Shown here piece after piece: positions 6,520 through 12,628 of a stretch of 15,467 bases of DNA; the stretch's first letter is position 1; each line of letters starts with the position of its first letter. A program made the position numbers and the translations under genes. The DNA comes from Candidatus Micrarchaeota archaeon (GTDB lineage: Archaea; Micrarchaeota; Micrarchaeia; Anstonellales; Anstonellaceae). The notes beneath the pieces are model-generated. The model made no database searches. It was given only the letters and a program-made list of their open reading frames with translations, and was not told the origin of the DNA. The stretch covers positions 3,315-18,781 of the forward strand of contig DUFS01000073.1 in assembly GCA_013331805.1 (NCBI GenBank), in the 5' to 3' direction.

Positions 6520-7863
6520 TTACCACGTGTACTTTACCCCGAAAAGCTCGTATATGTAGCTCACCATGAAGACGAATCCCACGAAAAACGGGTAGAGCCA
6601 GAGCAGGCACACCAACGGGAGGATGTGCCGCATCTTGGGCTCGGTCTTGGAAATTTCAAAGCTTTTTATCAGGAAGTAGGCCCAGATGGCAAGCGAGAAC
6701 AGCCCCAGCACCCAGGCTGACTGGAACGTCAGAAGGCCGTTTCCCAGGCCTGCCACGGTCGCGCTCACCCCTGCAGAAAAATTGTAGGTGAATGGGGAAA
6801 GCCAGTCAAAGAAATTCCTGCTCCAGCTCATCAGGGTCCATGCCATGAAAAGCGCGGCGAAAAAGCCGCTTCCAAGGGTGGTTGGGAGTATGAATATCCC
6901 GAAGTCGCCGTACGCAGGGTTGAAGAACAGGTCAATGTACTTGAGTATGTTCATCACCCCGCCGCGGTACCAGCGAAGCCGCTGGCGGAAAAGCCTGCCG
7001 AGATCAGCAGGAACATCGGTAAGGACCGAGGTCTCGTGGCATGCGCGGATCTTGTACCCGTTCTTCTGCATGCGAAGCGCAATCTCCATGTCCTCGGTCA
7101 GGTTCTGCTCGTCAAAGCCCCCAAGTTTCTGCAGAATGGCTTTCTTGTAAAAGGCGGTCGGGCCTGGCGTCACGTATAAGCCGTCTATGCTCGCAATGGT
7201 GCGGAAGAAAAAGCCGAACGATATCCAGTATTCGATTTCCTGAATCCTCTGCAGGATGCTCCTGGGGTTGTTGACGCACACGAAGACGACCACCGAGGCG
7301 ACGCGCTCGTCCTCGTAGAAGTGCTTTATCACCTTCTGCAGGCAGTCCTCGGCAGGATAGGTGTCCGAGTCTATGCACGCCACTATCTCGCCCTTCGCGT
7401 GCTTCATGGCAAAGTTGAGCGCAGCCGCCTTGCCGCGGTGGAGTTTGTTCGGAAGCAGGGTTACCCCGGGCGTTTTCGCAAGCAGGTCAAAGGATCCATC
7501 GGTCGAGCCGTCGTCCACCACCAGTATGTCGAATTTCCCGGAGTACTTCATTTTCTTGCAGGCTTCAAGGCAGTTGAAAATCGTGCCCCTTGCATTGAAG
7601 GAGGGGATTACCACGGTCACGTGGGGGTATTTCTCAGGCTCAGGGATGGGCGGCTCTTCCTTTGCCCCCTCCAGCCAAAGGATCAGGTACGAGCTGAAAA
7701 TGAAAATCGAAAGGATGGTGTATCCCAGAAATATGATCTGGTAGGAGATTGACAGGAACACGAATACGCAAACCGCAAGCACCAGCATGCCCAGTATCGC
7801 AAGCTCGCGCCGCTCGGGTATGTGGATGGTGGAACGCTTGTGCTCTGCTTTCTTCACTTCCAA
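6520..7863 (-). CDS. Membrane GT2 glycosyltransferase (processive, cellulose-synthase-like motif set)
   Basis: DDGSTD, GKAAALN, DSD, TED and QRLRW motifs, with N- and C-terminal TM helices. Start proposed at TTG 7863 with GGGTGA upstream; the ORF-track start at 7908 overlaps the upstream gene. Confidence 0.92.
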   Translation of the reverse strand: MEVKKAEHKRSTIHIPERRELAILGMLVLAVCVFVFLSISYQIIFLGYTILSIFIFSSYLILWLEGAKEEPPIPEPEKYPHVTVVIPSFNARGTIFNCLEACKKMKYSGKFDILVVDDGSTDGSFDLLAKTPGVTLLPNKLHRGKAAALNFAMKHAKGEIVACIDSDTYPAEDCLQKVIKHFYEDERVASVVVFVCVNNPRSILQRIQEIEYWISFGFFFRTIASIDGLYVTPGPTAFYKKAILQKLGGFDEQNLTEDMEIALRMQKNGYKIRACHETSVLTDVPADLGRLFRQRLRWYRGGVMNILKYIDLFFNPAYGDFGIFILPTTLGSGFFAALFMAWTLMSWSRNFFDWLSPFTYNFSAGVSATVAGLGNGLLTFQSAWVLGLFSLAIWAYFLIKSFEISKTEPKMRHILPLVCLLWLYPFFVGFVFMVSYIYELFGVKYTW

Positions 7864-10122: not shown

Positions 10123-11568
10123 GTGGCCAGCATGATCAGCCCGGACTTCGAAATCAGGCTCAGGCGCGAGGCAAAGACCTCTCTCCAGGTTTTCAAGGAC
10201 CAGTCCATACTCCGCAGGAAATTCGGGGATGACGGAGTCAGGCTCTATGACAGGATATTGGGGGACAAGACCGCGCACGAGCTTTTGGAAGAGCTTGGCA
10301 TGAACGAGGAAAAATTCGTTTCAATACTCGAGTTCATGAACAACAACGGCATGGTCTCGGTCGTGGAGGACGCCGAGCTTGAGTCCGCAAAATCCGCTGC
10401 AGGCAAGCAAGGCGAGGAAAAGGAGGAGTGGGCGCAAGAAAGCGAGCCGGCACTCGGCAAGGAGCCTGAAGAAAAAGAGGAAGGGCTAAGCGAAAAAGAA
10501 GAGGTTGAGGGCAAAGGCGGAAAAGAAGAAGGGGAAGGATCAAGCGAAGAAGAGGAGGGCAAAACAGAAGAAGACAAGGAAAAGCCTGGGCCCGAAAAAT
10601 CCCTGCCTGACGACCAGGGGCGCGATGAAGCGCTGCGCGGCATGCGGGGAAGAAAGCCCCGCCCCCCAAACAGGGCCGAAGTTCCTGAGGAGGAAGGCGA
10701 GCCTCTGCTTTCGCCTTTGGAAAAGGTGCTATTCGAAAAGTACGGGGACGTGGGCGTCCGGATTTACAATCTTATTGACGGGGAGAAAACAGCCGAGGAA
10801 ATACTGCGGCAGACAGGTGTCACCGAAGCCAGGCTTGTGGAAATACTCGAGTTCATGGACGAGCAGGGGATCATCAAGCTTGAAAAGCCGCCCGAGAAAG
10901 AGCCAGGGGAAAAACCCGAGGAAGAGGAGCGCTCAGCCGAGCCCGAGCAGGAGCCGCGCTTCAAGCCCATGATCGAGGAGGAGCCGGAAGAGATGCCCTT
11001 CACCCCTCCCAAGGCGCTTGAAAAGGAAAAGCCAAAGCCGAGAAAAGACGAGATAATGGAGGAGGAAGAGGAGCTGGAGCGCGAAATCGTGATGGTGGAC
11101 GTTCCTGAGCTTGCCAAGCTTTCGCTAATGCAAAAGGCGCTTCTCTTTGCCGAGCTTTCCACCAAGTTCGGAAAAAGCGCCAAGGACCTGATTGAGATGG
11201 TCGACAGCAAGCGGGACTTCATTGACCTTTCGCTTGGCACAGGGCTTTCATTTTTCGACGTTGACGCGATAATGGCGTATTTCGGGAAAAAGGGGCTGAT
11301 GAGCTTCAGGCAGCTGGGCCGCGAGGACATTAAGAAAAAGTACGGCGAGGACGGCTTCGCAATATACAAGCGCTTTGGCAGGGACGGACTCCTGCTTTAC
11401 GAAATGATCGGCAAGGAAGCCAGCCTCAAGGACATAATCGTCAAAAGCAAGCTGGAAGTTGACCGGGCGATAGAAATACTCATTTTCATCCACAGGGTCC
11501 TGGGGCTGGACGTCCCGATCGACAAGGGGCTGATTTATCGCCAGCTGGGAATGCGCAAACCGTATTAG
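10123..11568 (+). CDS. Hypothetical protein with four ~48-aa winged-helix-like repeats and acidic linkers
   Basis: Repeats of K[FY]G..G..[LI]Y..I.G.KT..E[LI]....G......[VI].IL.F....G begin at nt 10219, 10738, 11164 and 11371, separated by E/K/P-rich low-complexity linkers. Start is GTG 10123 or ATG 10132. Confidence 0.88.
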   Translation: MASMISPDFEIRLRREAKTSLQVFKDQSILRRKFGDDGVRLYDRILGDKTAHELLEELGMNEEKFVSILEFMNNNGMVSVVEDAELESAKSAAGKQGEEKEEWAQESEPALGKEPEEKEEGLSEKEEVEGKGGKEEGEGSSEEEEGKTEEDKEKPGPEKSLPDDQGRDEALRGMRGRKPRPPNRAEVPEEEGEPLLSPLEKVLFEKYGDVGVRIYNLIDGEKTAEEILRQTGVTEARLVEILEFMDEQGIIKLEKPPEKEPGEKPEEEERSAEPEQEPRFKPMIEEEPEEMPFTPPKALEKEKPKPRKDEIMEEEEELEREIVMVDVPELAKLSLMQKALLFAELSTKFGKSAKDLIEMVDSKRDFIDLSLGTGLSFFDVDAIMAYFGKKGLMSFRQLGREDIKKKYGEDGFAIYKRFGRDGLLLYEMIGKEASLKDIIVKSKLEVDRAIEILIFIHRVLGLDVPIDKGLIYRQLGMRKPY

Positions 11569-11595
11569 GTTTGCGCAGACATGCCCGCAGGCATG
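11551..11595. repeat. Double inverted repeat (double-hairpin module) enclosing the stop codon of the 10123 gene
   Basis: TGCGCAAACC(11552-11561)-gtatta-GGTTTGCGCA(11568-11577), GA spacer, then CATGCC(11580-11585)-cgca-GGCATG(11590-11595). Confidence 0.88.
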
Positions 11596-11609
11596 AAGAT
11601 GAGAAAGCC

Positions 11610-12038
11610 CTACCGATTCAGTATCCTGCTCAGTGCCATCCTCTCAATCGCAAGCCCGCCTTCGCTGTATTTTCCAATTTTCTTGCCCCATTCGGGCAAA
11701 GCCAATCGCCTGCATTTCTTTAGGAGCAGCTTCTTCTTCAGTTTCGAAATCGGAATTCCCTTTTTTGACACCAGCACGAAGTCCTTCACGCTTTTTGCCC
11801 CGATTTTCCGCGCTGCCGAGGAAAAGTTCGTTTCATTTGCAAGGAACAGCAATGCCTCGTTTGCCATCTTGCCAGAAATGTTTTTTTTCGCCGAGAATTC
11901 GGATTCGGCAAGCAAGAACGCGGCTTCCAGCTCCTTTTTGGTACGCATTGCTGCGGGATCGAGCAGCAGCATTCCTTGCGCAGCCTTCACAAGCTCGTGC
12001 ATGCTTGCGGCGGACGAGGAGCAGCGCAGGATCAGCAT
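11610..12038 (-). CDS. cgi121: KEOPS complex subunit Cgi121 (divergent)
   Basis: A...F..KKNISGKMANEALLFLA.....SSAARKIGAK and C-terminal IERMAL match the Cgi121 pattern. ATG 12038 lies about 23 nt from TTTAAA, so it is probably leaderless. Confidence 0.75.
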   Translation of the reverse strand: MLILRCSSSAASMHELVKAAQGMLLLDPAAMRTKKELEAAFLLAESEFSAKKNISGKMANEALLFLANETNFSSAARKIGAKSVKDFVLVSKKGIPISKLKKKLLLKKCRRLALPEWGKKIGKYSEGGLAIERMALSRILNR

Positions 12039-12060
12039 GCGTAGGTGCTCCGGTATAACC

Positions 12061-12068
12061 TTTAAAAA
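12061..12068. promoter_or_regulatory. Putative TATA box shared by divergent cgi121 and rps8e
   Basis: TTTAAAAA in the 79-bp divergent gap. Confidence 0.55.
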
Positions 12069-12117
12069 CAAGTGCCAGGATAAGCATTCCGCATTCGCGA
12101 TTCGAGGAGGTTATGGA

Positions 12118-12498
12118 ATGGAAAATTATCACGGCGCATCAGGATCCACCATCAAGGGCAGCGGAGGCAAGCGTGGCAGGCACTCGGACAAGAAGCTCCG
12201 ATACATCGGCGGGATTTTCACCGCAACTAAAGTGGCAAAAGAGGATGTCCGGATCATGAAAAGCAAGCGTGGGAACGCCTTGAAGATAAAGCTCAAGGCC
12301 GCAAGGTTCGCAAACGTGCTCACCAAGGACGGCATGAAGCGCGTGGCAATAAGAAACGTGCTTGAAACCCCTGACAACCGCCACCACGCCCGCCAGAACA
12401 TCATCACAAAAGGCGCTATCATCGACACCGAGGCAGGCAAGGTCAAAGTCACCAACCGCGTAGGCCAGGACGGGGTTGTGAACGGAAGGCTTCTGTAA
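12118..12498 (+). CDS. rps8e: 30S ribosomal protein S8e (eS8), 126 aa
   Basis: RGNALKIKLK, NVLETPDNRHHARQNIITKGAIIDTEAGKVKVTNRVGQDGVVNG. GAGGAGGT RBS at 12104-12111 fixes the start at 12118 inside the longer ORF-track frame. Confidence 0.97.
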   Translation: MENYHGASGSTIKGSGGKRGRHSDKKLRYIGGIFTATKVAKEDVRIMKSKRGNALKIKLKAARFANVLTKDGMKRVAIRNVLETPDNRHHARQNIITKGAIIDTEAGKVKVTNRVGQDGVVNGRLL

Positions 12499-12628
12499 GG
12501 CAAGGGAAGTTCACAACAAGTGGCTCGGAAGCCACTGTGTCGTCAACGGACGCCTGCTGTAAGGCTTTGGAAGTTGACGATAAGTGGCGCAACAGCGCCA
12601 CTGTGTCGTGAACGGTCGTCTACTCTAG
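12473..12628 (+). repeat. Tandem 64/66-bp double-hairpin units carrying recoded copies of the rps8e 3' end
   Basis: Units at 12473-12536 and 12537-12602 plus a partial third at 12603-12628. Each begins with codons for VVNGRLL*, and the two full units end in AAGTGGC...GCCACT hairpins. Confidence 0.92.

Follow-up and report, generated by a model that had tools for sequence, protein, structure and literature searches.

Introduction

Why should the last five codons of a gene be followed, 48 nucleotides (nt) downstream and in the same frame, by five codons that spell the same peptide in different letters? The question is raised by a 15,467-nt stretch of the genome of a Candidatus Micrarchaeota archaeon (GCA_013331805.1, contig DUFS01000073.1, 3,315–18,781 of the forward strand), referred to here as the window. 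In it, a winged helix-turn-helix (wHTH)-like gene ends in the residues MRKPY and a stop codon, runs directly into two adjacent hairpins and is followed by a second MRKPY that lies across the stop codon of a convergent gene, probably cgi121. The answer favored here, to which we assign a probability of roughly 0.55, is that the last codons of the wHTH-like gene contain a gene-less double-hairpin mini-element of about 48 nt, one of a family spread over the genome, and that this unit regenerates the gene end. The two parts of this answer differ in strength: an insertion with a displaced original end is very probable, and a surrogate gene end that arrived with the unit falls just short of an even chance.

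The unit consists, in order, of the last five codons with a new stop, an inverted copy of those codons that pairs with them to form hairpin 1, the bases GA, hairpin 2, and AAG. On this reading the gene now ends within the unit, and the original MRKPY lies untranslated 48 nt downstream, against the cgi121 stop. The MRKPY locus is the weakest example in its genome, and the interest lies in the family; the value of the locus is that it shows the nearby case at the ribosomal protein gene rps8e not to be a one-off.

Anatomy of the MRKPY locus

The wHTH-like gene occupies 10123–11568 on the plus strand (481 amino acids as listed, from the list of open reading frames (ORFs) and their translation) and carries the present, translated end. 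That end, the upstream and now functional copy, reads ATG CGC AAA CCG TAT TAG (MRKPY and stop; 11551–11568, plus strand) and doubles as the 5′ arm and loop of hairpin 1 (11552–11577), a perfect stem of 10 base pairs (bp) in which 11552–11561 pair with 11568–11577 around a 6-nt loop (11562–11567); the hairpin is assigned from the sequence, from folding and from the grammar of the family described below. The stop codon straddles the loop and the 3′ arm, the 3′ arm (11568–11577) repeats the gene's own codons in inverted orientation, and the hairpin begins and ends with TG…CA, as do other modules of the genome. A GA spacer (11578–11579), found again as hairpin-GA-hairpin in modules on contigs C2, C18, C55 and C78 (at 5411), leads to hairpin 2 (11580–11595), a 6-bp stem of a CAT..ATG type that recurs in the family, with 11580–11585 paired to 11590–11595 around the loop CGCA. 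An AAG spacer (11596–11598), likewise recurrent in the family, precedes the downstream copy, ATG AGA AAG CCC TAC (11599–11613), all on the plus strand. This second MRKPY is in frame at +48 nt, differs from the first at 5 of 15 bases, all synonymously, and is untranslated and without a following stop, the next codon being CGA; the sequence, the genome-wide scan and the empty sites of relatives together point to it as the displaced original end. The probable cgi121 converges on it from the minus strand (11610–12071), with its stop (CTA on the plus strand) at 11610–11612, inside the relic. Both the arrangement of the hairpins behind the MRKPY stop and the recoded echo across the cgi121 stop had been claimed in the original prediction, which was made from the letters alone; on re-reading, the hairpins proved exact to the base and the echo was confirmed.

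The region 11540–11625 folds at −31.4 kcal/mol against −20.35 ± 2.98 kcal/mol for dinucleotide shuffles (z = −3.71), and 0 of 200 such shuffles fold as well. Rfam covariance models run against the window gave nothing relevant at E values up to 1, and no bulge-helix-bulge could be drawn, by eye only, around the hairpins. The names of the two genes are only weakly supported, that of eS8 being solid: matches of the wHTH-like gene to TrmB and TFIIE-alpha profiles are all sub-threshold, and the cgi121 ORF scores 28.3 bits with NCBIfam Cgi121, below the cut-off of 40. Orthologs of the wHTH-like gene were found in 40 of the 41 genomes searched, its own genome counted.

A translational device would also be in keeping with the hairpin at the stop, with the gap of 48 nt and with the Tyr codons that match at take-off and landing: the ribosome would hop over the 48 nt, for which T4 gene 60 is the comparison, or read through TAG to the second MRKPY. 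The frame after the second MRKPY, however, is open to 12498, antisense to cgi121, so that a hop would yield a long nonsense tail; in addition, the second copy is out of frame in four of the six echoes described in the next section, and tRNA genes show the same architecture. Programmed bypass of the T4 gene 60 type was rejected since no productive frame follows the landing site, and a translational device of either kind is scarcely credible.

Gene-end echoes across the genome

The original prediction held that such echoes should exceed chance across the genome, and the scan was strongly positive. Exact matches of the last residues within 200 nt downstream were counted for 1227 non-overlapping ORF ends of the 1.19-Mb genome, with 100 permutations of the downstream regions as control. 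Six echoes of the last five residues were observed against a mean of 0.12 expected (maximum 1 in 100 permutations), and five echoes of the last seven residues against 0.01; when all 9674 ORF ends of at least 60 amino acids were used, 12 echoes were counted where 3.9 were expected at k = 5, and 7 where 0.75 were expected at k = 7. Besides MRKPY, the echoes belong to eS8 (two extra copies), uS7, an FtsX-type permease and a 166-amino-acid protein, and one order is common to all these loci: gene end, stop, inverted gene end (hairpin 1), more hairpins, second gene end. Hairpin 1 is followed by one further hairpin at four of the loci; at the FtsX locus three follow. Chance resemblance of five residues would be helped by the shortness of the MRKPY echo, part of which is a common motif, but six echoes where 0.12 are expected per genome, a grammar shared with the other echo loci, and empty sites at the predicted place in relatives leave it next to no probability.

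A third type of module, whose outer arms are rich in G, is common to two echo loci, one on contig C19 (stop at 7219) and one on C59 (stop at 12185); the pair on C19 shows two amino-acid differences and a TAG/TGA stop switch. The first 400 kb of contig C1 of relative G019 hold two recoded echoes. In one of them (L081–L100), a minus-strand gene for a 313-amino-acid membrane wHTH-like protein (stop near 31732) ends in RQALLRRAG-stop, which recurs 13 nt later with seven of nine codons synonymously changed and with no double hairpin between, so a recoded echo does not strictly require the grammar of two hairpins.

A family of double-hairpin modules

Perfect hairpins with stems of at least 7 bp number 636 in the genome and 329 in a shuffle; 38 pairs of them are adjacent. 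The grammar that many of these share is a TG..CA hairpin, GA (or GC, TCAGA), a second hairpin of the type CAT..ATG, AGTGG..CCACT or ATTGGAAT, a three-base spacer (AAG, ACA or CAG) and, often, ATGRRRAAR; the MRKPY locus fits it exactly. Stems differ from copy to copy and only the punctuation and the TG..CA ends recur, near-identical modules do occur at unrelated loci with different flanks (contigs C7 and C21), and arrays of two to three similar units are found. Direct repeats scoring at least 10 flank 9 of 74 module orientations, against 0.7 expected from permuted flanks, and the length of the flanking copies varies by locus (10, 11, 12, 14, 15, 15+, 24, and 39 nt). Boundaries are regular, in that relics begin at the TG or at the hairpin 1 base and the spacers recur, and the DNA between the gene-end copies consists of 30–110 nt of hairpins only. 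A crude ORF set places 13 of the 38 modules "inside ORFs," a count on which no claim rests, and perfect hairpins of at least 8 bp that span a stop codon are not enriched as a general feature (23 against 17.9 expected).

The cleanest flanking repeats are the last 12–15 bases of tRNA genes. Three of the 18 tRNAs called by ARAGORN, tRNA-Gln, tRNA-His and tRNA-Asn, have one or two modules downstream, bracketed by exact 12–15-nt copies of the tRNA 3′ end, the last of which precedes a T-run. The tRNA-type loci lie on contigs C13 (1–270), C46 (8800–8980), C55 (9780–10000) and C36 (17990–18179), and comprise His, Gln, Asn and one cut by the end of its contig; this last is the fourth tRNA case, and a fifth is an unverified candidate. 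Each module at a tRNA locus also holds an imperfect inverted copy of the target, which gives the signature target, inverted target, hairpin(s), target. To our knowledge, no enzyme or mechanism explains a target signature of direct copy, inverted copy, direct copy. One module type is common to three tRNA-type loci; its 18-nt motif found no match in 150 other genomes of the order, which point to no donor, and it is read as a probable recent burst in this lineage. Members of the family are found where protein-coding and tRNA genes end, each framed by two copies of its host gene's 3′ end.

The wHTH–cgi121 junction in relatives

The original prediction took the downstream MRKPY for a displaced ancestral end and expected relatives in which the two genes still meet without an insert. 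Among 19 same-genus relatives for which the retrieved locus includes the ends of both genes, the wHTH and cgi121 stops lie 0–9 nt apart in eight, 37–74 nt apart in five, and more than 500 nt apart with other DNA between in six; the expected empty sites thus exist, and together with the scan and an independent insert in relative G014 they support the displaced end. The usual end of the wHTH-like gene in relatives is ..RQ[LI]G[LM][KR]K-stop, but relative G007 (L040) ends in GMRKPAEA-stop flush against the cgi121 stop, which makes the MRKP.. extension native to this sub-lineage. The insert of G014 (L009) has the same architecture with a different second hairpin, and its relic MRK-stop directly adjoins the cgi121 stop; relative G006 has another insert, at a junction that is no longer next to cgi121. 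Three species carry different second hairpins at the end of the wHTH-like gene, and the distribution of modules at orthologous junctions is patchy.

An old MRKPY end overlapping cgi121 would need a stop lost at CGA by one or two substitutions, with which the sequence is consistent. In this genome cgi121 ends in ..ILNR-stop, with one extra C-terminal Arg (11610–11618), where 14 of 19 relatives end in ..N-stop; the extra Arg codon sits where the old wHTH stop would have been, and would fit a cgi121 stop that moved after the old wHTH end had lost its function.

A search of metagenome contigs for cgi121 returned two loci only, one from the same organism (99.9% identical) and one of 67% identity with a different gene on the wHTH side. 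Among 20 runs listed, there was no RNA run that contained the stretch.

The rps8e locus

That the same logic applies at rps8e, as first claimed in the original prediction, is borne out. The gene (12118–12498, plus strand; Pfam Ribosomal_S8e, 74.3 bits) ends in VVNGRLL-stop at 12475–12498, and the sequence and the echo scan give three copies of this end on the plus strand between 12475 and 12628 (12475–12498, 12539–12562, and 12605–12628), which differ only synonymously and are separated by two double-hairpin units of 64 and 66 nt. The last VVNGRLL stop overlaps the stop of a convergent TctA-family gene (12625–12627; CTAG). As judged by eye, one to three units are present in 7 of 22 same-genus relatives, two with decayed relics, and in 0 of 7 more distant genomes.

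Across eight rps8e units from six genomes, covariation supports both hairpins: 94.5% of cells pair, against 83.3% in shuffles, and 0 of 500 shuffles reach that value. At the two Val codons, changes in the wobble bases are matched by changes in the bases with which they pair, and the G·U pairs are valid on the plus (mRNA) strand only. At the level of sequence comparison, the hairpins at rps8e are thereby shown to be maintained as RNA structure. This selection on RNA structure, the arrays of two to three similar units and the uniqueness of the MRKPY-locus hairpins in the genome would all suit a non-mobile structure of the 3′ untranslated region, a terminator or stabilizer, that evolved in place, with local tandem duplication and the relic as a by-product. 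Near-identical modules at unrelated loci (C7 and C21, and the three tRNA-type loci), patchy presence at orthologous junctions, and three species with different second hairpins at the same gene end speak against it, and we regard it as improbable. A mobile unit may itself act in this way: in the favored reading of an inserted mini-element, the hairpins in the mRNA would probably serve as a 3′-end structure, either terminator or stabilizer, between convergent genes.

The rps8e end of this genome differs from that of the closest sampled relative at four of eight codons, and the divergence between copies within the genome thus resembles that between orthologs. This resemblance is what a recombination scar would produce, in which DNA of a relative replaced the 3′ end, with homology at the left and an illegitimate join at the right and no element involved. 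Regular boundaries, recurring spacers, modules that form sequence families, and tRNA genes with the same architecture are hard to obtain in this way, and a scar is very improbable.

Two side observations concern the rps8e units. At position 12528, the contigs of all four metagenome runs read C, not G, which turns the loop of the second hairpin of the first unit from CGGA to CGCA, the loop of the MRKPY-locus hairpin. In the metagenome contig L102, the inverted copy in hairpin 1 of rps8e complements the first-unit codons of this window and not the active codons of L102, which are those of its relic; the mismatch hints at exchange or conversion between copies.

Origin of the synonymous differences

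The six echo pairs, which were ascertained on amino acids, comprise 51 codons, of which 21 are identical and 29 differ synonymously, with changes from one stop codon to another counted among them; the single difference of another kind is the stop position at the MRKPY locus. The copies differ at 38 of 153 nt (25%), yet the hairpins are perfect. A stop is kept in register in 21 of 23 relics, and 12 of these 21 use another stop codon than the upstream copy does (our reading of the scan listings, three decayed relics out of register excluded).

In the favored reading, the insertion that brings a module would leave the target end at either side of it, together with an inverted copy of the target. 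Once at a gene end, the unit of gene end, stop, and hairpins would be handed down or traded among related genomes, and each of the two copies found in a genome would have served as a working gene end in a history of its own. Such histories would explain why the copies at protein genes show synonymous differences only, and those at tRNA genes none.

Alternatively, the pattern may stem from plain target duplication, in which about 15 nt or more were duplicated, the copies were identical at birth and the differences arose later, by synonymous drift in the translated copy and with a relic that changed little, whether through luck or some constraint. The exact 10–15-nt flanking repeats at young-looking modules are as this would have them, and synonymous-only change over the five codons of MRKPY is weak evidence against it (P about 0.01–0.02 by rough estimate). 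A neutral relic, however, should change at all codon positions, and no more slowly than the active copy does at synonymous ones, whereas the six pairs show 29 synonymous differences and one other; the relic stops mostly remain stops while switching identity; and hairpins have stayed perfect between copies that differ by 25%. The ortholog of the 166-amino-acid protein in relative G010 makes the same point: it carries a separate module, and residues absent from other relatives are common to its active and its relic end, which nevertheless differ at 7 of 13 codons (7 synonymous, 0 non-synonymous). As the cause of the synonymous-only differences, a surrogate end is favored, at slightly under even odds, over plain target duplication, which we consider possible but doubtful.

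Several observations weigh against the favored reading, and some of them directly favor duplication. Relative G002 carries a nearly identical duplication of 29–30 nt around a single hairpin at this same junction, so duplication in place does happen. A nucleotide-based scan, in which seven matches of at least 18/24 were obtained where 0.3 were expected, contributes another three echoes, whose differences include non-synonymous ones (contigs C19, C53, and C83); these and the decayed rps8e relics of relatives are both outcomes that neutral decay would give. The lineage-specific residues common to both G010 copies mean that any donor must be a close, unsampled relative. At the MRKPY locus itself, the echo is the shortest of the set and the sole one of six without a following stop, and its ATG-AGA-AAG matches the flank motif ATGRRRAAR, which was expected beside 0.16 of the 37 other modules and is found beside 5. 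Exact copies of its two hairpins occur nowhere else in the genome, so the mobility of the copy at this locus is something we infer. In contigs from four metagenome runs, as in a second metagenome contig, only the filled form was seen and no empty allele within the species, although assembled contigs cannot reveal rare variants.

A linked enzyme is also missing: searches for Y1 transposases and tyrosine recombinases found none associated with the modules, DDE families not being searched. Y1 transposase (PF01797) gave three fragmentary matches (C56:3022–3243, C28:24389–24514, and C42:1532–1690), and the hairpins that flank these TnpA-like fragments do not resemble the modules; tyrosine recombinases (PF00589) gave two genes in unrelated contexts with no modules beside them. 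One of the IS200/IS605-type Y1 fragments lies beside a TnpB-like ORF and one is broken by a run of N.

A more far-reaching version of the inserted mini-element is speculative and, on balance, rather unlikely. It would be gene-less mobile DNA that chooses and repairs its target by base pairing, with the inverted copy in hairpin 1 as a rewritable guide to insertion at the 3′ ends of genes and tRNAs, a working replacement for the gene end, and a displaced end that stays intact because exit and re-entry, or exchange between genomes, are frequent enough to keep both ends in use. Since such a unit carries a working replacement end, even essential genes (eS8 and uS7) could be hit.

Comparison with known systems

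Integrative elements partially duplicate tRNA genes at their boundaries (attL and attR), and the tRNA gene stays intact. The modules resemble them in that the tRNA 3′ end stands twice around the insert, and differ in that the repeats are 60–130 nt apart with hairpins alone between them and that modules are stacked in tandem. An integrative element with an integrase body was rejected, because only 30–110 nt of hairpins lie between the copies and the integrase genes are elsewhere.

REP and REPIN elements, where REP denotes repetitive extragenic palindromes, are marked by an accompanying RAYT gene and by a GT[AG]G head that is conserved. One module subfamily starts with AGTGG; the Y1 matches are fragmentary, and none was shown to be RAYT. 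Derivation from an IS200/IS605 element was rejected on two grounds: the hairpins by the three TnpA-like fragments are unlike the modules, and such elements insert without target duplication, whereas direct repeats flank the modules.

Furuta et al. are said to have described, in 2010, insertion with long target duplication for restriction-modification gene units. A long, variable target duplication around the insert is common to both cases; there the insert is a restriction-modification unit, and here it is hairpins only.

Prophage e14 of Escherichia coli K-12 offers a close parallel for the surrogate end. Its account describes a 3′ end of icd, borne by the element, that becomes the working end, with the original icd end left as a C-terminal pseudogene (icdC) and with copies that differ mainly synonymously, apart from two conservative substitutions (PMC13626634). 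As at icd, the gene 3′ end is present twice here and it is the copy next to the body of the gene that works; unlike e14, a 15-kb prophage with an integrase, the insert is about 30–48 nt of hairpins, with no gene and no linked recombinase. The mobile ORFs of Glomus atp6, atp9, cox2, and nad3 and of Allomyces atp6 are similarly described as replacing the native C-terminus by an inserted one, the native end staying downstream; nucleotide identity of the C-termini is 64–81% and protein identity high, from which the authors infer transfer from a relative (PMC3630166). The replacement gene end and the mostly synonymous differences are shared with the modules, but the fungal ORFs encode a homing endonuclease in about 1 kb and the modules encode nothing; a homing-endonuclease mobile ORF was rejected, as no ORF fits in the 30 nt between copies.

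Among small repeats, MITEs (inverted-repeat transposable elements of miniature size), REPs, bacterial interspersed mosaic elements (BIMEs), Rickettsia palindromic elements (RPEs), and Correia elements are described as small, structured, and multi-copy, often at gene ends and sometimes fused to reading frames, and MJRE of Methanocaldococcus is cited with the small hairpin repeats (PMC2229807). Target duplications of the MITE and REP types are short and fixed, often TA, or absent, as that source has them, in contrast to the variable flanking copies of 10–40 nt found here (PMC2229807); the inverted target built into hairpin 1 and the regenerated gene end are specific to the modules. A MITE was rejected because the copies have no terminal inverted repeats in common, hairpin 1 being built from codons of the host gene, and no short target duplication of fixed length, the flanking copies running from 10 to 39 nt. 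The double-hairpin elements of fungal mitochondria are like the modules in being tiny, gene-less units of two hairpins, thought to be mobile, possibly between species (PMC10085805). They differ in being GC-rich, mostly intergenic, and fixed in sequence, and a duplicated gene end is not described in the part of that account available to us (PMC10085805).

Literature searches on Micrarchaeota and DPANN found no description of such hairpin elements. The modules apparently amount to a small variation, not described before, on themes already known: the surrogate gene end and the hairpin repeat. If the favored reading is true, very small archaeal genomes carry gene-less mobile DNA of some tens of bases, which would settle on the ends of essential genes and tRNAs and leave them unharmed because each copy brings a spare gene end. 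Stacked relics would then preserve past gene ends as fossils do, and perhaps also a trace of exchange between species. In the annotation of DPANN and candidate phyla radiation (CPR) genomes, it is easy to miscall gene ends and "pseudo-ends."

Other features of the window

A further double-hairpin module lies at 2097–2143 on the plus strand, recognized by its match to the grammar (TG..CA hairpin, GA, CAT..ATG hairpin). It stands between two minus-strand genes, and the start codon of the downstream gene abuts it. An open frame of 305 codons (11581–12498) runs antisense through all of cgi121 and in frame into rps8e, and is probably a shadow frame; similarly long open frames (251–300 amino acids) occur around rps8e in six relatives (G010, G012, G004, G021, G022, and G003).

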